Shown in pieces: positions 10,092 through 61,095 of a DNA stretch of 64,000 bases. Both the position numbers and the translations under genes were made by a program. The number at the start of each line of letters is the position of its first letter. Positions within the stretch are counted from its first letter, which is position 1. The notes under the pieces were generated by a model, which was not told the origin of the DNA, did not search any database, and saw only the letters and a list, made by a program, of their open reading frames with translations. Source of the DNA: a virus (Duplodnaviria > Caudoviricetes); the IMG/VR virus record IMGVR_UViG_3300021387_001614, positions 64,001-128,000 of that record; one strand, given 5' to 3'.

Positions 10092-10478
10092 TTAAAAATC
10101 ACCAAATTCAGCCCTATTTTTCATTTGGCGTTCTTTTGCTTTTTGTATTGTTTCTTTGTCGAGTTCTCTCTTCATCAACATGTTACCCTTTGTTCTGAAA
10201 AGACGGTCTGAATTATTTTTAGCCGTACCACGTTTTTCATTTTCTCTTTCAGAATAATAAACATCAGGATTAACAATCATATTAGCCTTGCCCGCCTTTT
10301 CTTTGGCTGCTTGGTATTGACGAACAGCCTCAAGCCACGCCTTTGTTCCCTTCTTCGACCTCTTTACCCTTGCCTTAAGTGCCTCTAGGTCTTCCTCTTC
10401 TTTTATAATTCTTTTTACTGAATTACTAATAATTCTATGAAGGTCAGATTCCGTTAATCTTATAAGTTTTTTTGCCAT
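10092..10478 (-). CDS. Basic protein with N-terminal LTESDL tag (putative internal head protein)
   Basis: Begins MAKKLIRLTESDLHRIISNSVKRIIKE. Confidence 0.75.
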   Translation of the reverse strand: MAKKLIRLTESDLHRIISNSVKRIIKEEEDLEALKARVKRSKKGTKAWLEAVRQYQAAKEKAGKANMIVNPDVYYSERENEKRGTAKNNSDRLFRTKGNMLMKRELDKETIQKAKERQMKNRAEFGDF

Positions 10479-10924: not shown

Positions 10925-11084
10925 TTAAGTATTTTTTAACGTTTTAGTCGATTTCCAAACATATTTAACGATTCCACAATCATATATTCTAAAAATCTCA
11001 AGTTTTTTTGTCATTTCCAATTCTGTCATCGAAAGCGGAAAACCGTATTTCTTATGAAGGATTTGCTTTCTAAAATTAAACTTA
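10925..11084 (-). pseudogene. C-terminal fragment of a homing-endonuclease-like gene, cut by the IS element
   Basis: KFNFRKQIL...TELEM...RIYDCG..KYVW resembles the C-termini of phage Hef-like endonucleases; abuts the left TIR. Confidence 0.65.
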
Positions 11085-11196
11085 GGTAATGATATAGCAG
11101 TTGGCACAAAATAGGCTGTTATACGTATAGAAATGTCCTATAAACGCTGGACTTTTCGTAAATTTGCATTATAATTTAAAAGAAAAGTTCAGCGTT

Positions 11197-12183
11197 ATGA
11201 TTAATTTCAAGAAGTTCAACAACATCATTTCACTCACAGCGTATTTCACCTCTGATGAGAAGTGCAAGCAAGCCATTGTTGAGAGCCGTTGGGGTGTTGG
11301 CAATGAACAAGACGTTGTTTGCCCATATTGTGGTAAGCATCACTGCAAAATGTCCAAGAATGGACGTTTCCATTGCACTGAGTGCAACAAGAACTTTTCT
11401 TGCCTCGTTGGTACTATCTTCGAGAACACAAAGTTGCCACTCATCAAGTGGTTCGTTGCAATGTATCTTATATCTTCTCATAAGAAGGGTATCAGTAGCC
11501 ATCAACTGAGTCGTGACCTTTCAGTTACACAGTCAACTGCTTGGTATATGCTTCAGAAGATTCGTCTTCTTTACCCTCAGAGCGATGCAGATGCATTTGA
11601 GGGTACTGTTGAGTGTGATGAGGTGTACATCGGTGGTAAGGAAAAATGGAAACATAAGTCAATGCGCACTCCCAATACCCAAGGTCGTTCCATGAAGACC
11701 AAGACTCCAGTCTTTGGTATGATGGAGCGTAGCACCTTTGAGAATGAGAAGGGTGAGATTGAGCCTATTACGTATGTCCACGCATTCGTTGTTGAGAACA
11801 CGAATAGAGCCACATTACAGCCAATCATTCAGCAGTTCGTTGCTGATGGTTCAAGAGTCATCACTGATGAACTCAATGCATACAATGGACTTGCTGAGTT
11901 AGGATATACTCACGCTGTGGTTGCCCACGGTGCTGAAGAGTATGCCAATGGTGACGTATTCACCAATAGTATTGAGGGCTTTTGGAGTCACTTCAGACGT
12001 ATGATTGTTGGCTGTTATCACGATGTGTCTGATGAGCATCTTCAGCAGTACATTGACGAGGCTGTGTATCGTTGGAATACAAGAAAAATGAGCGAATCAG
12101 AGAGATTCGCCCATATGTTCGACAAGTCAATCGGGCTTGTTCGTAGATGGAGTGAAATTAGAGTTGGTCTGATGGCTGCATAG
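11197..12183 (+). CDS. IS1595-family (ISXO2-like) DDE transposase
   Basis: CPYCG..C..C zinc ribbon, GTIFENTKLPL..WF, VECDEVYIGG, ITDE...Y, TNSIEGFW, YIDE..YRWN; visibly higher GC than flanks; -7 box TAAATTTG 11159-11166. Confidence 0.95.
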   Translation: MINFKKFNNIISLTAYFTSDEKCKQAIVESRWGVGNEQDVVCPYCGKHHCKMSKNGRFHCTECNKNFSCLVGTIFENTKLPLIKWFVAMYLISSHKKGISSHQLSRDLSVTQSTAWYMLQKIRLLYPQSDADAFEGTVECDEVYIGGKEKWKHKSMRTPNTQGRSMKTKTPVFGMMERSTFENEKGEIEPITYVHAFVVENTNRATLQPIIQQFVADGSRVITDELNAYNGLAELGYTHAVVAHGAEEYANGDVFTNSIEGFWSHFRRMIVGCYHDVSDEHLQQYIDEAVYRWNTRKMSESERFAHMFDKSIGLVRRWSEIRVGLMAA

Positions 12184-12196
12184 ACAAGTATAACAA

Positions 12197-13018
12197 TCAT
12201 CTACGCATTGTTTTTAATATATGTTTACCTGAACTCGTTTGCTCTAAGAAAAAGTCCATACCTTGTTCAATTGCATTGTGTATTATATCTGCCACAGTTG
12301 CATATGCACGTTCATCTAAAATCCATTTTTTTAGCCTTTCTTGATATTGGTCCATTATATTATCATATGCCATATCTGTTGCCTTAGAAACATCATTATA
12401 CAATTCATCATAGCCTGATGCTAACGACCAATGTTCTTTCAATACTCTATTTACTGATTCTTTTACTATCTGTTTCAAATCACTTTCTGTGAGCCTAATC
12501 TGTTTCTTGTTCATATTTGTATATTTTATTTCTGTTATTATTTCTGGTGTTTCGTTTGGTCTTAATACCATTACTTTTGCGTGTTTGTGAGTGTTTGCCA
12601 ATGGGTCTTTAAAACCTTTGTTTTGCCATATATTCTGAACTGCTTGATTTATTAGTGCTGCATCATTATCATCAAGTATTTGGCAGTTGTAAACATACTG
12701 TATAACCTCAAATGATTTCCTTTCACCAACAACATTTCCTTGTTTATCTTTTATTTCCATGTCTACAGACACATCAGATTTATCTTCTCCGTTTTCCGAA
12801 TAAACCACACAAGTGTTTATTGCATAGGATGGGTCATAGTCTTTGTCATACCAAGTCCACAACCAAGTTCCGTGATTTGAAATTCTTGCTTGCATAGGTC
12901 TGCTATCTTCCATCCTATAAGTTCTATAATATGAAGTGTCTCTTCTGTTTGGTTTGAAACCACCATTACGTCTAATTAACTCTATTGCTGTATTAAAATC
13001 AATCATTTTGTTAAACAT
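12197..13018 (-). CDS. IS passenger protein: unknown N-terminal domain (SYY...RISNH) plus internal LTESDL tag
   Basis: Contains MNKKQIRLTESDLKQIVKESVNRVLKE; late motif at 13025-13032. Confidence 0.8.
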   Translation of the reverse strand: MFNKMIDFNTAIELIRRNGGFKPNRRDTSYYRTYRMEDSRPMQARISNHGTWLWTWYDKDYDPSYAINTCVVYSENGEDKSDVSVDMEIKDKQGNVVGERKSFEVIQYVYNCQILDDNDAALINQAVQNIWQNKGFKDPLANTHKHAKVMVLRPNETPEIITEIKYTNMNKKQIRLTESDLKQIVKESVNRVLKEHWSLASGYDELYNDVSKATDMAYDNIMDQYQERLKKWILDERAYATVADIIHNAIEQGMDFFLEQTSSGKHILKTMRR

Positions 13019-13068
13019 TTCTAATATAAATAGTTTGTAAGAAAGAAAAATATTAATTTTGCAGCATT

Positions 13069-13539
13069 ATGGCAAAGCAATACAATTCACTTTCTTTTTT
13101 TGATTACCCACCAACAGAATTGTTGGGTAGCAATATCTATGAAAACTCTATTAAAAGGTTATCATTTCAATACAGAACTAAAAATGAGGATAAACTCATT
13201 GCTTATATTGCTGTATCTCAAGACAAACCTAATATAGATGTACCAAATGTAGAAAACCAAATGAATGGTTGCAGAATCTTAGGTATTTATACAGAAAATT
13301 ATCAAATAGGGCACTATCAAGTAACAGATTTACAATTATTAGGGGCTTTACTTGATGAAGCTGAGTTTTACATTAAAGGTTGGGTTAATAACCAAAATGG
13401 TCAATTCCAATTTGATTACTTGTGGTTCAATGTGGTTGATTTTGATTCACAAGATGTTGTAGAAAGAATAGATAATATGATATTGAATAATGGTATAGCA
13501 TATAAACTTATAAAAAGAAATGAGCAGCCAAATCATTGA
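13069..13539 (+). CDS. IS passenger hypothetical protein behind a host-type promoter
   Basis: 156 aa; TAATTTTG -7 box at 13054-13061; terminator 13518-13550 just inside TIR-R. Confidence 0.75.
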   Translation: MAKQYNSLSFFDYPPTELLGSNIYENSIKRLSFQYRTKNEDKLIAYIAVSQDKPNIDVPNVENQMNGCRILGIYTENYQIGHYQVTDLQLLGALLDEAEFYIKGWVNNQNGQFQFDYLWFNVVDFDSQDVVERIDNMILNNGIAYKLIKRNEQPNH

Positions 13540-13586
13540 CTGCTCATTTTAAATAAGCAATTTGTGCCAACTGCTATATTATTGCC

Positions 13587-13702
13587 TGTTTTTTACATGT
13601 AACAATTATATTGGTTTTCGGGTTAACATATACTGATTTACTATAATCGAATAAATCACCATGTTTCTCTTTTGAACGCCTTATAAATTCCTCTGTGTTC
13701 AT
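13587..13702 (-). pseudogene. N-terminal fragment of the interrupted homing-endonuclease-like gene
   Basis: MNTEEFIRRSKEKHGDLFDYSKSVYVNPKTNIIVTCKK, a DUF723-like zinc-ribbon start, ends at TIR-R; its promoter is retained (CAAATATA 13721-13728, CAAA 13748-13751). Confidence 0.7.
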
Positions 13703-13780
13703 AAAATTTTTTCCTTTTTGCAAATATACAATAAATATTTGTAAAAACAAAAAAATAGGGGCAAAAAAACTTTTTATATT

Positions 13781-20284: not shown

Positions 20285-21085
20285 TTATCTGTAAAATAAA
20301 TGTTTATAATATTGTCTGTAATTATTTGTAAACCAATTAATTACGTTAATTAGCCCTTTATTGGCATATAGTATTCTATCACTAATTATTGATTTAATAT
20401 ACCACACACCTCTTGCATAATCATGAAATATAGGACATACGTATCTGACTGCTCTGCCATTAAATATAGCATCATATTCTTCATCCAACGCATGATATGT
20501 CTCAACACCACTTGCAAGACAAATGACACAATCTTTTCCGTAACATGATTGATTCATCTGCTCGTATTTTATTGTGTTTACAAGATGACCAAAAGCGAAA
20601 ACACCGTTTTTCTCATCGGGCATTAAATTATGCGTCCACGGAAGTTGTTCAAAGTCATCTACACCTTTTTTAAAGCCTTCCTTTGCAATTTCCTCCGCAT
20701 GGTCAGTAAAGTGTATAACCCACTTATTAGAAAATGTTTTTTCGTGGTGCATTGTTAAATGTGCAGGTGCACCATGAAACTCTCCATACCCATTAACAAA
20801 ATTTTCAGACATTTCGTTATAGAAATCATTTGGGTTTGCACCCATTTCAATCGCCATATCATAAATCTCGTTAAAATTATAATATTTAAGATTGTTAAAT
20901 TCATTTCCATATTTTGATACACACCACTCTATAAATGCACCGGGATATTTCTCAATGCACTGTCTTGTTTTCTTCTCTGTATTGGTAAAATAATTTTTAA
21001 GGTCTATACCCTTTTTTTCCCAATACTCAGAAACAGAATTTTCGAAAAGTTTCTTAAATGTACCTTCTGAAATAACAAGTCTCAT
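20285..21085 (-). CDS. Tagged late protein, putative ADP-ribosyltransferase-like fold (paralog of 35726..36448)
   Basis: MRLVISEGTFKKLFE tag variant; WVIHFT..A..IAKEGF, FAF, DEEYDAIF; late motif 21097-21104. Confidence 0.55.
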   Translation of the reverse strand: MRLVISEGTFKKLFENSVSEYWEKKGIDLKNYFTNTEKKTRQCIEKYPGAFIEWCVSKYGNEFNNLKYYNFNEIYDMAIEMGANPNDFYNEMSENFVNGYGEFHGAPAHLTMHHEKTFSNKWVIHFTDHAEEIAKEGFKKGVDDFEQLPWTHNLMPDEKNGVFAFGHLVNTIKYEQMNQSCYGKDCVICLASGVETYHALDEEYDAIFNGRAVRYVCPIFHDYARGVWYIKSIISDRILYANKGLINVINWFTNNYRQYYKHLFYR

Positions 21086-38964: not shown

Positions 38965-39213
38965 TTAAGGCATTACTCTTGCACCGTTTTGTGCATTTGC
39001 CCAATAATTTTGTAGTGTTAAGAAATCTCCGAGTTCATCTGTGTCATGCTGTTTTCCATATTTATATTCACCATTTTCGTCATGAACCGGTGCTGTTGTG
39101 GAAATTTCAGCATCACTATTATATTCCTTTACGTCACCGTTATCAAAAGTTGGTGCTGTTTCAGCCTCAAGCAACTTTCTAAACTGTGACTCATTTAAAG
39201 TTATTTTTTTCAT
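38965..39213 (-). CDS. Small tagged protein
   Basis: MKKITLNESQFRKLLE; late motif 39228-39235. Confidence 0.75.
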   Translation of the reverse strand: MKKITLNESQFRKLLEAETAPTFDNGDVKEYNSDAEISTTAPVHDENGEYKYGKQHDTDELGDFLTLQNYWANAQNGARVMP

Positions 39214-42498: not shown

Positions 42499-43398
42499 TT
42501 AATAATCTTGTTTGATATTAAAATATCTGCTATATGTAGGGTTTTTATAATTTCCGGCTGTTTTTTGAAACAAAAGTTTTTTAAGATAGTTTGTTTCATC
42601 ACTAATCTCACACTTATTTAGTTCGAGATTTCTCATTTTATCGTAAACATGAATTTTATTTCTTAATTTGGAATTCTTTATTAATTTATATAAACTCATT
42701 CTTTCATTAAGATTTCTTTCGCTAAAATTATACGGTAAAAGTAGTATATCAACTCTTAAAATATATTGATTTGCGTTTGGTATAGCGTTTGCATATGTTG
42801 TAAGTCTATCCTCCGCTTGAAAATAAGGGTGACCTTGTTTATCCCCAACACCATCCACATAACCCATTTTATCACTTTTTTTGCCATAATTAATTGGAAG
42901 ATATGATGATGTATAATCATTGCTTTGCATCATCCATTCTTTGCCATTATAAGCAAACGCCCCATCGTGTTCATCTGCAAATGTATACGGGTCGCCATTA
43001 TTGTGGATTTTATATGCCCAATCAAATGGCTTTATCAGCATGTTATATTGTTTCCCATTAACTTTAAAATTTGGTTTTTTATTAAATAAATCACCGTCTA
43101 TCGTCAAGCGTATTGCACACCAATCATCACCTTTTCCGTCGTCACCTGAATACATTATTATTGGCCAACCTTCCCTAAATGATTTCGTTCTTGAGAATGA
43201 CATTGTATTTTTTCCATTATGCCATTTCTTTTCAAAACCAGTGGGGGTAAACGAATCTGTCTTAACTAACGCCTCAAATCTATCAAAAGATAAAAAATGA
43301 TATAATAAGTTTGAAGCAGATTCTTTTAATACTGATGTTACAGATTCTTTTATGATATTACATAAATCCGTTTCGGTGAGTTTTATTAGTTTCTTCAT
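42499..43398 (-). CDS. LTETDL-tagged protein, putative ART-like fold
   Basis: MKKLIKLTETDLCNIIKESVTSVLKE then LYHF, MSFSRT, IRLTIDGD, QAEDRL. Confidence 0.6.
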   Translation of the reverse strand: MKKLIKLTETDLCNIIKESVTSVLKESASNLLYHFLSFDRFEALVKTDSFTPTGFEKKWHNGKNTMSFSRTKSFREGWPIIMYSGDDGKGDDWCAIRLTIDGDLFNKKPNFKVNGKQYNMLIKPFDWAYKIHNNGDPYTFADEHDGAFAYNGKEWMMQSNDYTSSYLPINYGKKSDKMGYVDGVGDKQGHPYFQAEDRLTTYANAIPNANQYILRVDILLLPYNFSERNLNERMSLYKLIKNSKLRNKIHVYDKMRNLELNKCEISDETNYLKKLLFQKTAGNYKNPTYSRYFNIKQDY

Positions 43399-48835: not shown

Positions 48836-49443
48836 TAACAATAGGTGTTGAATTAAACGATGTCGTTAGAGACATTAAAAAACAGATGCTGAAATACTTT
48901 AAAAAAGAATTTGGCAGTGATTATGACCCGGATGACATTGAAAGCAGCGAGGATATTTTTGAAAAGGGGTATATAAAGTTTAACTCAAAAAAGGATGAAA
49001 AAAATTTTATATACATAGATTATCCTTATGAATTGTTTGGTTGTGCCAAACCAATGGAAAAAAATCTTCCAACAAAAATAAATCAATGGCTAACAGATAT
49101 GTCTAATATTGATGACGAAGAGTTTAGGGTTATTTATTTTTCAATGGACGAGGAAGCGCTTACAATACAATCAAGTTTCTTTTTTTTGAGCAAAATAGGC
49201 ACACGTGTAAGAGAAGTTTTATTCCCTCAAAATATAGACGAGATAAAGGGAAAATTTGATTTTGTTGTTTCTGCAAATAATGACATTATCAATAAACTAG
49301 GTGAAAACGGAGTGAAAACGATTAAAATAAAGAAAGATTGGAACACTGAGACTAAATGTGATTTTGAATTTGATTCATTATCAGATGTTGTTGATGATGA
49401 GAACTTTCTAAATAAAATTGTTGAAATTAAGAAAAATGGCTAA
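48832..49443 (+). CDS. HAD-fold 5'(3')-deoxyribonucleotidase-like protein, degenerate
   Basis: MITIGVELNDVVRD in place of IGIDxDxV; IKIKKDWN near the C-terminus. Confidence 0.55.
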   Translation: MITIGVELNDVVRDIKKQMLKYFKKEFGSDYDPDDIESSEDIFEKGYIKFNSKKDEKNFIYIDYPYELFGCAKPMEKNLPTKINQWLTDMSNIDDEEFRVIYFSMDEEALTIQSSFFFLSKIGTRVREVLFPQNIDEIKGKFDFVVSANNDIINKLGENGVKTIKIKKDWNTETKCDFEFDSLSDVVDDENFLNKIVEIKKNG

Positions 49444-49750
49444 TTTTAATGAAAAAATGTACCTCAACTTGGATGCGATAAAGGATTTCATTTTTGAGGA
49501 AGAAAAGCGTAACAGTGATGTTGAAGTAACTGAAACTATGGGAGCATCAGGTGGTGAAAAATTAGAAACCGTAAGCAAAGTTATTAGAGAGGTTAAAAGC
49601 AGCGACTTTTCAAATAAACAGACCATTAAGTATGACATGATTAAAATGTTTATTGAAATACTTAATGAAATCGAACAAAATGGTACACCAATGACTTGTG
49701 GAGAAAGTGTGGTGGTTAATACAATGGTTGCATATAATTTTTTAATTTAA
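49436..49750 (+). CDS. Hypothetical protein
   Basis: Start reassigned to ATG 49436 (MANFNEK). Confidence 0.7.
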   Translation: MANFNEKMYLNLDAIKDFIFEEEKRNSDVEVTETMGASGGEKLETVSKVIREVKSSDFSNKQTIKYDMIKMFIEILNEIEQNGTPMTCGESVVVNTMVAYNFLI

Positions 49751-49759
49751 AGAGATAAA

Positions 49760-50905
49760 ATGATGGAAGATAAGAAAACAAAAGCCTTACAAAAAGTTAA
49801 GGAGGAAATTGAAAAAATAAATAAAAAAGAAAACAATGTTTTTTTCTTTGTTCTTGATACGAAAGGTAATCCAAGTGGTAGTTTGGAATATATTTACAAC
49901 CTTGCTCTGATTACTAAAAATAATGGATATAAAGTATCTATGCTTTACCAAGAAGAAAAGAAAGAAGATTTTGTTGGCGTAGGTGAGTGGCTAGGCGAGG
50001 AGTATGCAAACATTCCGCATTATAATATCGCAAGTGATGATGTGGAAATCACGCCGTCTGACATTTTATTTATCCCCGAAATTTTTGCTAATGTAATGAA
50101 TCAAACAAAGAAATTGCCGTGTAAACGAATAGCATTGTTTCAAAATTATGATTTTTTGGTAGAACAAATGCCGTTTGCTGCACAATGGGGTGATTTTGGT
50201 ATACTTGAAGCAATTACCAACACAGAACACAATGCAAAACTCATTAAGGATATTTACCCATACGTTAAGACAACGGTAATTCAGCCATTTATTAAAAAAT
50301 ATTTTGGAAACACCAATGAATCCAAAAAGATGGTTGTCAATATTGTTGCTGAAAATCAGAGTGATATTAATAAAATAATTAAGCCATTCTATTGGAAATA
50401 TCCGTCATATAAGTGGGTATCATTCAGAGATTTACGAGGTTTCCCTAAAACAAGATTTGCTGAACTCCTTCGTGAGGGTGCTATAACCGTATGGGTGGAC
50501 GATAAGGCAACCTTTGGATATGGCGCAATTGAGGCAATGAAAAGTGGTTCTGTTGTTATAGCAAAAGTTCCTGAAACACCGTTACCGTGGATGGAAAGCA
50601 GTGATGAAAACCAAAAGGGAGTATTAAAGAATTGTTGCTTATGGTTTGATGATTTCCATGAGGTACAAAGAGCCATTGCTAATGTTGTACGTGCTTGGAT
50701 TACTGATAAAGTTCCTGATGAAATACAAAAAGAAGCAGAGAAGGTTTCTAAAATGTATGATGAAGAAACAACAACAAAACAGTTCTTAGAATATCTTACA
50801 GAAGTGAATGAAAAACGTAAGGCTGAAATGGAAGAGTTATACAATAACGTAACAAAGGATGCTGAAGCAAAAAATAATAAGAAAAAAGCAAAGAAAAATG
50901 AGTAA
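49760..50905 (+). CDS. Glycosyltransferase-like protein (GT-B fold)
   Basis: DILFIPEIF, FRDLRG, VWVDD.ATFGY.AIEAMKSG. Confidence 0.75.
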   Translation: MMEDKKTKALQKVKEEIEKINKKENNVFFFVLDTKGNPSGSLEYIYNLALITKNNGYKVSMLYQEEKKEDFVGVGEWLGEEYANIPHYNIASDDVEITPSDILFIPEIFANVMNQTKKLPCKRIALFQNYDFLVEQMPFAAQWGDFGILEAITNTEHNAKLIKDIYPYVKTTVIQPFIKKYFGNTNESKKMVVNIVAENQSDINKIIKPFYWKYPSYKWVSFRDLRGFPKTRFAELLREGAITVWVDDKATFGYGAIEAMKSGSVVIAKVPETPLPWMESSDENQKGVLKNCCLWFDDFHEVQRAIANVVRAWITDKVPDEIQKEAEKVSKMYDEETTTKQFLEYLTEVNEKRKAEMEELYNNVTKDAEAKNNKKKAKKNE

Positions 50906-51674
50906 CATAACAGTAATTGTACCAATACATAAATATGACGATGAGGTTGCATCTCTTCTTGAGGATGCAGTAAATTCAGTGCCGAACGACATGAATGTTC
51001 GCTTATCGTGTCCTAAGTCCATTGAAAAAAGTCTTAATGAATGGTGTACGGGTAGAAAGAATGTGTCAGTTTTTTCTATCTCAGACGAAAGTGATTTTGC
51101 TACCTTAGTTAATCAGGCAATTGATGATACTGAGTATTTTTCTATACTTGAGTTTGATGATGAATATACTCCAACATGGTTTAACAATGTACAAAAGTAT
51201 ATCTCTGAACAACCCGAAACGAGTGTTTTTTTACCACTTGAGGATTTGGTTGACTATACAACTAAAGAATATATAGGATATGGCAACGAAGCACCTTGGG
51301 CATCTTCATTTTCTAATGAAATAGGTTTTATAGACCTCGATTGCTTACAAAATTTCTTTAATTTTTATATGACAGGTTCGGTATTTAATACAAAGGATTG
51401 GAAGAAAATCGGTGGACTTAAAAAATCAATTAAACTTACTTTTTGGTACGAATTCTTGCTTCGTATGACCAGTAAAGGTAAAAAAATTTTTGTGATACCA
51501 AAGGTGGGGTACGTTCACTATTTAAAGCGTAAAGGTTCGGTACTTGATGAATATATCAATACGATGGACGAAAAAGAAAGTGAGTTTTGGTACAATATAG
51601 CAAAACAAGAATATTTATTTAAAGATGATAGGGGCAAAACATATAATCCCGACAATAACAAAAAAGAAAATTAA
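50898..51674 (+). CDS. GT2-family glycosyltransferase
   Basis: ITVIVPIH, FSILEFDDEY, GGLK, YEFLLR, IPKVGY.H; start ATG 50898. Confidence 0.8.
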   Translation: MSNITVIVPIHKYDDEVASLLEDAVNSVPNDMNVRLSCPKSIEKSLNEWCTGRKNVSVFSISDESDFATLVNQAIDDTEYFSILEFDDEYTPTWFNNVQKYISEQPETSVFLPLEDLVDYTTKEYIGYGNEAPWASSFSNEIGFIDLDCLQNFFNFYMTGSVFNTKDWKKIGGLKKSIKLTFWYEFLLRMTSKGKKIFVIPKVGYVHYLKRKGSVLDEYINTMDEKESEFWYNIAKQEYLFKDDRGKTYNPDNNKKEN

Positions 51675-56438: not shown

Positions 56439-57340
56439 ACAAAATAAATATTATCAAAATAGCGCAAGTAGAGGACGTAAAGGATGATGCTGACGGTTTA
56501 AGAATAAAGGCGAGATTGCCACAAGAAAAAGGACAAGTCAGTGAGTTGCCATATGCGTTTCCACTTTTACCAAAGACATTTCAAAGTGTGCCGAAGGTGG
56601 GTGAGGGTGTTATTATATTAACAATGGAATCTGATAATAAAGAAAGTGACAGATTTTATATTGGTCCGATAATATCACAGCCACAGTTTCAGGAGAAGTG
56701 TACACATTCTTATGGCCGAGGTGCAAGCATGTCACTTTTAAATGAAAGGTCAGTTAAACCCGAAGAAAAAATCAGTAACCATGCCGAAACTGTGGGTGCA
56801 TTTCCTGCTGTTGCTGACGTTGCTGTTGTGGGGCGGCAAGGGCAAGACATAACTTTAAGACAAACACCCGGAAGGGAGGAAGAAGAGATTGATATAAGAT
56901 GTGGCATAAGAAAACAAGCCACCGCACCGCTTATAGGAAAAGTTATTTTTAACAATGTTGACCCTGCATATATTCAGTTAAAATATGGCGTAAATATCGC
57001 ATCAGGTGTTGATAAAAACGGTGTACCCGTAGATGCTAACAGCGTGGTAAATATTGCTGCTGACAGAATTAATATTATAAGCACAAAGGATTTATCACTA
57101 AACAGTGAAGTTACTAACCCCGAAAATCTTATACCTGACCTTGCACAAACAATGAATGATTTACACCAAGTACCACTTGGTGATAGACTTGTTGATTTTT
57201 TAAATAAATTCGTTACTGCATTTTTGAATCATGTGCATAACCATAATTTAAAAGAGCCATCAGACGGCACTTTAGGTTATCAGGATTTAAAAAACTATCA
57301 GATAGATAAAATTTTATCTGAGTATGTAAGAATATCATAA
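56435..57340 (+). CDS. Baseplate central spike protein (gp5/gpV-like OB fold)
   Basis: V.D..D..RIKAR, FPLLP....VPKVGE.V, RFYIGP, C-terminal H.H.H. Confidence 0.7.
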   Translation: MNKINIIKIAQVEDVKDDADGLRIKARLPQEKGQVSELPYAFPLLPKTFQSVPKVGEGVIILTMESDNKESDRFYIGPIISQPQFQEKCTHSYGRGASMSLLNERSVKPEEKISNHAETVGAFPAVADVAVVGRQGQDITLRQTPGREEEEIDIRCGIRKQATAPLIGKVIFNNVDPAYIQLKYGVNIASGVDKNGVPVDANSVVNIAADRINIISTKDLSLNSEVTNPENLIPDLAQTMNDLHQVPLGDRLVDFLNKFVTAFLNHVHNHNLKEPSDGTLGYQDLKNYQIDKILSEYVRIS

Positions 57341-57375
57341 AAAAAATGGGCAACCGTGATTGGCTGCTCATTTTT
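57341..57375. terminator. Bidirectional intrinsic terminator
   Basis: AAAAATGGGCAACC...GGCTGCTCATTTTT. Confidence 0.8.
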
Positions 57376-57415
57376 ACATTCTATGTTATTGCCAAAATTT
57401 TTAGAAAAAACAAAA

Positions 57416-58573
57416 TTATCTAACCAAAAAGTTAAACGGCATCGGTTTGTTTTGTAAAACCTTAATGAGACTGTCAGTGAGGTCTGCTTGGTTTTTCATT
57501 AAGTTCCATGGAAGCATCCTATCAAGACGTTCTTTCAACTCAGTTAAAACGCGGTCTTTTTCTTGTTTTCCTTGGTCGAGAAGCATGTTGTAGTCCATCT
57601 GCATCTCTGCTTCAGGAATTTTAACAGCACCGCTATATGTTCCTCGAATAATACCTAACGTTATCATCGCCTCAGCGACAAGCAACTGTCGTATTGTCTG
57701 CTGTGTGGGTTCATTCATGAGTTCATAACGCATCTTATTCAGTGGAACTTGGTCGGGCGTTATTAAGACATCATCTTTATTATCAATAAGACATTGCGTG
57801 AGTTCATCGTCATTCTTACCCGTTATGTCGTAATATGTATACCAAACGTAACAATTCGCATATCTGTTCCATCCCCACGTATCATCGGCAGCAATACCAC
57901 CAACCATATTTGGCGAACCGGGAACGCTTAAAAGGTGAACCAAATGAGTACCCTCTGGTCCGGCTGTCACTTGATATGCTAAGTCACCCCTTAAAAGTGA
58001 ATTTTTATATTTAAGGTCAGCTGCCATAAGGCTTGTATCATATGCAGAACCAACATAAAATCCCGTTATGCCCATACCGTTTCCCATATTTCCATATTGT
58101 CCAAAACCACCACCGATACCCGTATCGAGTGTTCCAAGGTTACCGTATAATGCAGCCTTAGTTGTTGATGGTGTGACATAAAGTACTTTATTTATTTCAC
58201 GCCCTGCTGGAATAATGTAAACTTGTTTTCCGCGTTCTACCTTAAAGAAATCCTTTTTCAACTCCCACGGACCCCTTTGTTGTAAACCCACCTCACGGCT
58301 AAACCAATAAGAGAAATCTCTACTCCAATCAAGTGACCTTGTTGTGAGCGCATAAGCAAGTTCTGACGGGTTGGTTATTAGTTTATTGTTACCCATCATA
58401 TTAAGCCATTGGGACTCAATCACCCAATTTTGAACATACGATGCATAATCACCCACAGCAACTTCCAATAATGCACAGAGTTGGTCATCCTCTAACTGAA
58501 CTACTCTAATTGGCGCACCAAGTTTGGTTCTTACTATCTTAAATAAATCTTTTAATTCATCACTTAGTATCAT
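57416..58573 (-). CDS. Neck / head-tail adaptor protein (gp13-like)
   Basis: LGAPIR.VQLEDDQL, LG.IRG.YSG.V.IP.......Y..L...G..EK..L..EL; late motif 58591-58598. Confidence 0.7.
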   Translation of the reverse strand: MILSDELKDLFKIVRTKLGAPIRVVQLEDDQLCALLEVAVGDYASYVQNWVIESQWLNMMGNNKLITNPSELAYALTTRSLDWSRDFSYWFSREVGLQQRGPWELKKDFFKVERGKQVYIIPAGREINKVLYVTPSTTKAALYGNLGTLDTGIGGGFGQYGNMGNGMGITGFYVGSAYDTSLMAADLKYKNSLLRGDLAYQVTAGPEGTHLVHLLSVPGSPNMVGGIAADDTWGWNRYANCYVWYTYYDITGKNDDELTQCLIDNKDDVLITPDQVPLNKMRYELMNEPTQQTIRQLLVAEAMITLGIIRGTYSGAVKIPEAEMQMDYNMLLDQGKQEKDRVLTELKERLDRMLPWNLMKNQADLTDSLIKVLQNKPMPFNFLVR

Positions 58574-60792: not shown

Positions 60793-61095
60793 TTATCCTA
60801 TTAAATGATATCCTTCTTTTTCAGCATAATCTTGTGCAATCCTCATTGCATCTTCATAAGTATTATATGGGCCGTCAACATATCCGGCAGATGAATTTTG
60901 TAAATCTTCCGCTTCATTTCTTTCTACAACGGTACAAATGGTATCCTCATAGCCAATGGTTTCAATTGCCACATAATAGCCATCAGGCAGTGGTTCATTA
61001 TCCCATCCGTCGTAAATCTCTTCTTTTAAAACCCTTCTTATTGACTCTTTTACAATTCTATGCAAATCTGATTCTGTTAAGTTAATTTTTTTCAT
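60793..61095 (-). CDS. Small acidic protein with N-terminal LTESDL tag
   Basis: MKKINLTESDLHRIVKESIRRVLKE; late motif 61109-61116. Confidence 0.8.
   Translation of the reverse strand: MKKINLTESDLHRIVKESIRRVLKEEIYDGWDNEPLPDGYYVAIETIGYEDTICTVVERNEAEDLQNSSAGYVDGPYNTYEDAMRIAQDYAEKEGYHLIG

Follow-up and report, generated by a model that had tools for sequence, protein, structure and literature searches.

The window analysed here, a stretch of 64,000 nucleotides, comprises bases 64001-128000 of a 146.9-kb viral record whose completeness was judged to be 44%, values that suggest a jumbo phage of roughly 330 kb. Two divergent genes were found in it, namely a leftward gene for a protein of 273 amino acids (aa) (13018..12197, minus strand) and a rightward gene for a 156-aa protein (13069..13539, plus strand), separated by a gap of 50 bp (13019-13068). 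Both genes are located inside an IS1595-family transposon of 2,502 bp (11085-13586) with 27-nt inverted repeats (Table 1). The record encodes tail tube and sheath genes, and the element sits between them. A megablast search of the INPHARED phages with an 8.2-kb query returned no match.

Table 1. Features of the IS1595-family element in the window, and 8-bp target duplications at homologous insertions.
Feature	Position or locus	Strand	Remarks
Left inverted repeat	11085..11110		Terminus GGTAAT...; homologous elements elsewhere end in GGCAAT...ATTGCC
IS1595-family transposase	11197..12183	+	ATG at 11197 is the likelier start; open reading frame (ORF) opens at TTG 11164
Hypervariable helical C-terminal tail, residues 201-273, with stop codon	12197..12418	-	Homology between copies ends right after the leader
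Internal leader peptide copy MNKKQIRLTESDLKQIVKESVNRVLKE, residues 173-200	12419..12502	-	Several other small proteins of this genome carry it at their N-terminus
Orphan conserved N-terminal domain, residues 1-165	12524..13018	-	107 representative clusters; AlphaFold2 pLDDT mostly >90
Divergent control region	13019..13068		Leftward phage-type motif core 13025-13033; TTTG 13034-13037; rightward -7 box TAATTTTG 13054-13061
156-aa protein, predicted GNAT-like fold	13069..13539	+	
Terminator-like hairpin	13518..13549	+	Inverted repeat I16, 14-nt arms, 93% complementary, then TTTT; overlaps the 156-aa stop codon
Right inverted repeat	13561..13586		Terminus ...ATTGCC; also kept beside solo 156-aa genes in L009, L024, L025, L027
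8-bp target duplication	L016		AATATTTA
8-bp target duplication	L018		TTTTCAAT
8-bp target duplication	L031		AAATCTAT
8-bp target duplication	L041		AAAAATAA
8-bp target duplication	L042		CTTATTTA
8-bp target duplication	L045		CAAATGGA
8-bp target duplication	L050		TTTCTTGA
8-bp target duplication	L052		TTTTTATT

The element was assigned to the IS1595 family by its DDE transposase with an N-terminal zinc ribbon and by the terminal inverted repeats that bound the whole unit. The transposase matched Pfam DDE_Tnp_IS1595 (PF12762; 6.4e-45) and Zn_ribbon_IS1595 (PF12760; 1.7e-9) and scored 197.9 bits against NCBIfam NF033547 (cut-off 75), and a TAAATTTG box is located 30 nt upstream of its gene. The arms of the inverted repeat (27 nt; 11084-11110 and 13561-13587) are 93% complementary and enclose the transposase together with both passenger genes. 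Perfect 8-bp target duplications, enclosing all three genes or their remnants, were found at eight independent homologous insertions, and these duplications together with the common termini of the homologous elements indicated that the three genes move as one unit. Moreover, a 2,546-bp element showed 99.3% identity between two different chromosomal sites, which implied that the element is active.

The copy in the window is not framed by an 8-bp target duplication, its flanks being TAAACTTA and TGTTTTTT. Short ORFs on either side of the insertion sequence (IS), at 10925-11107 and 13574-13750 (both on the minus strand), resemble the C- and N-terminal pieces of a single endonuclease-type gene, and the N-terminal piece (minus strand, 13574-13750) contains a '...HGDLFDYSKSVYVNPKTNIIVTC' pattern that we take to be DUF723-like. 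The missing duplication and the gene pieces on either side suggested that a deletion probably occurred at one end after the insertion.

Analysis of the homologous loci revealed that the element resides at many chromosomal sites in rumen Prevotellaceae and has repeatedly entered their jumbo myophages. Many copies are located in bacterial chromosomes, the carriers including rumen metagenome-assembled genomes (MAGs) that are Prevotella or Prevotellaceae in GTDB. One bacterial copy is flanked by rpsP and another by psd and a CDP-alcohol phosphatidyltransferase (pssA-type) gene, while the flanks in the GTDB MAGs include genes for transketolase, GH2, EamA, a Y-family polymerase and an aldo/keto reductase. 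At L045-L047, which have a bacterial context, the insertion lies within an IS4-family (DDE_Tnp_1) transposase gene that is split into pieces of 240 aa and 166 aa, with Peptidase_M48 and LemA genes nearby. At least three phage contigs carry the element, including the window record (147 kb), L018 (184 kb) and L016 (300 kb). The phage copy L016 and the bacterial copy L045 share 99.1% and 97.8% DNA identity over two blocks, and only the tail segment of the larger protein differs between them. To our knowledge, insertion sequences are rarely retained in phage genomes.

All fetched loci were then scored by tblastn for the presence of the genes. The divergent pair, usually accompanied by the transposase, was found at 18 distinct loci, and the same arrangement with a control region of 50-60 bp was seen in all 18 intact loci. 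The pair was kept even at L038 and L048-L050, where the 156-aa protein is just 32-37% identical and the N-terminal domain (N-domain) of the larger protein 59-75% identical. The pairwise divergences of the two genes were correlated (Spearman 0.82, to which relatedness alone contributes), and dN/dS between phage and bacterial copies was 0.10-0.17 for the transposase and both passenger genes alike. Purifying selection acts on the whole trio, which is as a rule co-inherited. The two genes form a real and anciently linked pair, which bears out the pairing proposed in the original prediction, made from the DNA sequence of the window. Deeply divergent allelic classes exist for the 156-aa protein, and L048 is a mosaic in which a distant allele of this protein is joined to an otherwise similar element.

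Solo copies of both genes were also identified. In the lineage represented by L009-15 (13 contigs read), the right inverted repeat accompanies an intact 156-aa gene, and the partner gene is deleted right after the first codons; at L027 the 156-aa gene is intact and alone, and at L024 and L025 it lies beside partner remnants of 20-40 residues. L019 (G001) encodes an intact 309-aa N-domain protein, while its 156-aa gene is precisely deleted (the equivalent of window positions 13031-13499 is missing) and the terminator-like hairpin is still present; no homologue was found elsewhere in the sequence of this 280-kb record, which is an estimated 80% complete. L044, on a 354-kb contig, likewise has an intact N-domain gene without the 156-aa gene, the proteins of L019 and L044 being 305-309 aa long, and in L052, a decayed element, the N-domain gene is frameshifted and the 156-aa gene absent. 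After loss of the transposase, both passenger genes are still found (L009 and L019). Co-occurrence is therefore not strict, and an obligate toxin/antidote pair is not supported, because each gene persists intact without the other (L019 and L044; L009-15 and L027). Independent assortment, which had been named beforehand as one of the outcomes that would speak against such a pair, was observed in part: solo intact copies of each gene occur, and the pair is linked in 18 loci.

For the analysis of the control region, 8-mers were counted over the 80 nt upstream of each of the 122 genes in the record-wide gene set. The most enriched ones were TATTTATA, ATATTTAT and ATTTATAA, with TATTTATA preceding 16 of the 122 genes against 1.3 expected. 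The full phage upstream consensus, GATATTTATAAGAAAAG, precedes about 20 genes at a distance of 18-57 nt from the ATG, among them those for the tail tube and other large virion-type proteins (examples in the window are 20285-21085, 38965-39213, 57416-58573 and 60793-61095), and about ten other genes in the record are preceded by a canonical Bacteroidota promoter (TTTG-N19/20-TAnnTTTG), which suggests two transcription classes. The minus strand of the gap reads CTATTTATATTAGAAATG. Between the rightward TAATTTTG box and the start codon of the 156-aa gene lie 7 nt, and the spacer from TTTG to the box is 16 nt; a -7 box is expected by chance at about 0.03 per 50 nt per strand. Both signals in the gap are weaker than the best examples in this genome. 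In 12 of 12 diverged copies of the element, TAnnTTTG was found 5-7 nt before the 156-aa ATG with a varying 'nn' (TAAT, TAAC, TACC, TATC), and a TATTTAT-type core directed towards the N-domain gene was kept in the same number of copies, the bacterial chromosomal ones included. The ORFs and motif positions thus confirmed the earlier description of a 50-bp gap holding a leftward motif and a rightward host-type -7 box, and the proposal that the two genes have different types of promoter was borne out by the retention of both signals.

The 273-aa protein consists of a conserved N-domain, a short linker, an internal copy of a leader peptide and a tail. Strong conservation extends over residues 5-155; more than 324 clusters at 90% identity were found, and 107 representative clusters at 50% among 1.84 billion proteins. 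Across 66 diverse members, S29, Y31, R45, H49, T51, W56, N68, Y108, Y110, D138 and P139 are conserved in at least 90%. The S-Y-Y...R-I-S-N-H pattern pointed out in the original prediction is present as S29-Y30-Y31 and R45-I-S-N-H49, and S29, Y31, R45, H49 and T51 rank among the most conserved residues of the family, so that the N-domain may be described as a conserved domain with a putative enzyme-like residue constellation. Neither the N-domain nor the 156-aa protein, nor distant relatives of either protein, gave a credible match to a Pfam, PHROG, NCBIfam or PADLOC family. Sequence-profile searches of the PDB returned nothing below E = 0.7, and the 273-aa model had no Foldseek match below E = 0.1 in either the PDB or BFVD, while both VIA runs on the same model were dominated by the helical tail. 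In these searches with the full-length model, no nuclease fold was found for the N-domain, and the weak EndoMS/NucS rows (probability 0.18 or lower) do not serve as nuclease evidence. Nor did the family and Foldseek searches link the N-domain to any toxin family or fold. When the N-domain (1-166) was co-folded with the 156-aa protein, the score was 0.00 and the tool verdict 'no answer', which counts neither way, and nothing informative emerged from the genomic neighbourhood of P0261, a distant relative of the N-domain.

The leader peptide also occurs in the window at 10416-10463, 43339-43386 and 61039-61086. Its consensus, MxKKxIRLTESDLHRIVKESVKRIIKE, was located within the first 12 residues in 62 of 66 unrelated metagenomic proteins (74-222 aa), some of which are encoded on contigs of 160-411 kb. 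Synonymous sites vary freely between the leader copies of this genome, with TCN/AGT switches at serine codons among the changes, which indicates that the peptide itself is under selection. In five Prevotellaceae genomes, the leader was found almost solely in the transposon's own protein, with one or two matches each. A full-text literature search for 'LTESDL' retrieved no papers. The L-T-E of the leader resembles the L/I-x-E cleavage context of T4; no prohead protease of the T4 or HK97 type (Peptidase_S77 and Peptidase_S78) was found in the record, which covers 44% of the genome. The 107 tails that follow the leader fell into 59 unrelated clusters, and some of them recur as the bodies of free-standing leader proteins, as in the pairs P0170 with P0326 and P0189 with P0303, which implied that the 273-aa protein is an N-domain placed before a swappable module of leader and body. 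The tails are wholly different between copies whose 156-aa proteins are 92% identical, and a reading of the pair as a polymorphic toxin with its immunity protein was rejected for want of co-variation between the tails and the 156-aa protein.

The family of the 156-aa protein comprises 48 clusters at 90% identity, and P0121 has 91 member sequences. Structure prediction gave the protein a GNAT-like alpha/beta fold. None of 22 family members had a Pfam GNAT match even at E up to 5, and N-terminal acetyltransferases scored equal to GNAT toxins against the protein. The residues kept even in alleles of 32% identity are LSF-x-(Y/L)R, GC(R/K)I, EA in the long helix, W, and F-(D/S)-Y-x-W-F, and the invariant ones (LSFQYR, GCRI, FDYxW) differ from the GNAT motifs. 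The protein is thus modelled as GNAT-like with a possibly non-canonical activity. Two orphan protein families can be proposed from these analyses, one a sequence orphan with a predicted GNAT-like fold and the other a conserved domain with apparently enzyme-like residues; no description of either family was found in the searched literature.

Other IS-related sequences were noted in the record and in a related contig. A second IS1595-family transposase is encoded at record positions 49021-49911, about 14 kb before the window start, and is 52% identical to the transposase in the window; a leader-bearing ORF lies near it at record positions 51555-51644. At 57335-57393 of the window, just before the gene at 57416-58573, there is a relic that looks like the right end of the element at 11085-13586, with a terminator-like hairpin and a terminal CTATGTTATTGCC, from which the inner part of the inverted repeat has been deleted. 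On the 300-kb phage contig, a BspA-type LRR_5 gene (L016:7221-8396) begins 29 bp outside the IS end, which echoes the leucine-rich-repeat (LRR) cargo of the second IS of the record.

Taken together, the two genes are functional, co-inherited passengers of an active IS1595-family transposon of about 2.5 kb that is shared by Prevotella and jumbo phages, and we consider it probable that they serve as conflict-related or self-serving cargo wired into host and phage expression. The 156-aa protein would be produced constitutively, in any Prevotella cell or at an early stage of infection, from a near-leaderless transcript of host type, and the 273-aa protein would be made mainly while the late transcription of a jumbo phage is running. 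The leader would route the latter to the destination of the phage's own leader-bearing proteins, possibly into virions, and the pair would act in phage-host conflict or for the transposon's own benefit. Among the readings weighed, that of conflict-related, 'plugged-in' cargo is the best one.

Several points weigh against this reading. The window copy has no target duplication, and its mobility may have been lost. Both the timing of expression and any virion loading are predictions, and the function of either protein is putative. The gap contains just an 8-nt core of the phage motif, located 13 nt from the ATG of the 273-aa gene and thus nearer than in any typical case, and the neighbouring rightward promoter could partly explain why this leftward core is conserved. 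The GNAT assignment derives solely from the predicted fold: the acetyl-CoA pyrophosphate-binding loop Q/R-x-x-G-x-G/A (between beta4 and alpha3) was not found in the 156-aa sequence or the family consensus, and hhalign of the 156-aa family against five GNATs from the same Prevotella genomes gave a probability of 0.1%. Finally, intact copies in unsampled parts of the genomes might complement the solo copies.

A more specific proposal, which we regard as unlikely, is that the transposon has plugged its cargo into the phage late regulon and the shared leader-peptide pathway. An infecting phage would then induce the protein even from a chromosomal copy and carry it, possibly in virions, and the GNAT-like partner would modify it or protect the carrier. 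If true, this would be a mobile element parasitising the protein-delivery system of a phage.

It is about as unlikely that the two passenger genes work for the transposon itself. The N-domain protein might in that case couple transposition or target choice to phage infection, for instance, and the GNAT-like protein might modify a host factor or the transposase. The retention of three genes within the inverted repeats over deep divergence under similar purifying selection, the evident activity of the element at many sites and the passenger genes known in some IS1595-family members (ISfinder) would fit this idea. However, the transposase alone suffices for typical IS1595 members, the second IS1595 of this phage carries other cargo (an LRR protein with a leader) and no 156-aa homologue, and both passenger genes outlast the loss of the transposase.

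The original prediction had gone further and proposed, as a speculation, a gene drive in mixed infections, with the 273-aa protein as a toxin that is packed into every progeny head and the 156-aa protein as an early antidote made only by element-bearing genomes. The divergent genes with different promoter types and their tight linkage over deep divergence are consistent with it, as are the decayed loci L009-15, L024 and L025, in which the 156-aa gene is kept and the partner truncated, the order of loss expected for a toxin and then its antidote; the same holds for the divergent allelic classes of the 156-aa protein, one of them in the otherwise similar element of L048. On the other side, L019 and L044 keep intact N-domain genes without the 156-aa gene and without another copy in the L019 record, most of the sampled copies are chromosomal, where there are no heads to load, the tails differ wholly while the 156-aa proteins are 92% identical, and the N-domain matched no toxin family or fold. 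Solo intact genes, a mostly chromosomal element, tails without co-variation and an enzyme-like fold predicted for the supposed antidote thus make a strict gene drive unlikely, and setting one phage against another is an unnatural frame for a pair that is the cargo of a transposon living mostly in bacterial chromosomes.

We likewise give little credence to the view that the two genes are functionally unrelated hitch-hikers, brought together only through one small transposon. Each gene is alone and intact in some genomes, and the mosaic L048 would be expected from this view; nevertheless, each of the 18 intact loci keeps the divergent arrangement around a common control region, even where identity falls to 32-37%, and the divergences of the two genes are correlated, though relatedness alone would give much of that. 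The reverse polarity, in which the 156-aa protein is a TacT/AtaT-type acetylating toxin neutralised by the 273-aa protein or its N-domain, is the least credible reading and fails on the wide occurrence of intact 156-aa genes that lack the partner (the 91 sequences of P0121; 13 contigs read), besides which the genes are divergent with no operon and no ribbon-helix-helix (RHH) or DUF1778-type partner, the acetyl-CoA loop motif and sequence similarity to GNATs are absent, and N-terminal acetyltransferases score as well as toxins.

Like polymorphic toxins, the larger protein joins a conserved N-domain to a hypervariable C-terminal part through a sharply conserved junction motif. Its tails, however, are short and helical, are found again in ordinary small leader proteins and do not co-vary with the 156-aa protein, whose gene lies upstream and divergent rather than downstream as an immunity gene would. 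In contrast to members of the GNAT superfamily (Ard1/Naa10-type N-terminal acetyltransferases, and the tRNA-acetylating toxins TacT, AtaT, KacT and GmvT), the 156-aa protein has no GNAT sequence motifs and no adjacent RHH-type antitoxin. The leader recalls the capsid targeting sequence of T4 (Mullaney & Black, 1996, as cited in PMC10052503) and the N-terminal propeptides on giant-phage head proteins of SPN3US (PMC10052503) in being a short N-terminal peptide common to otherwise unrelated phage proteins. Unlike these tags, it is about 27 residues long, almost invariant and internal in the 273-aa protein, and its loading and cleavage are putative. The element could offer a route into the function of this strongly conserved peptide, which is found on dozens of unrelated small proteins. 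IS1595-family insertion sequences with passenger genes are listed in the ISfinder catalogue as 'transporter IS', and the element resembles them in its ISXO2-like DDE transposase with an N-terminal zinc ribbon, its short inverted repeats, the 8-bp duplication seen at homologous insertions and the extra genes inside. It differs from them in carrying two orphan cargo families, one of which bears a leader common to unrelated small proteins on phage-like contigs and a phage-like upstream motif, and in residing in both host chromosomes and jumbo-phage genomes. Near-identical copies in phage and host, with cargo under host-type and phage-type expression signals, make it a concrete system for studying the movement of elements between a bacterium and its viruses.
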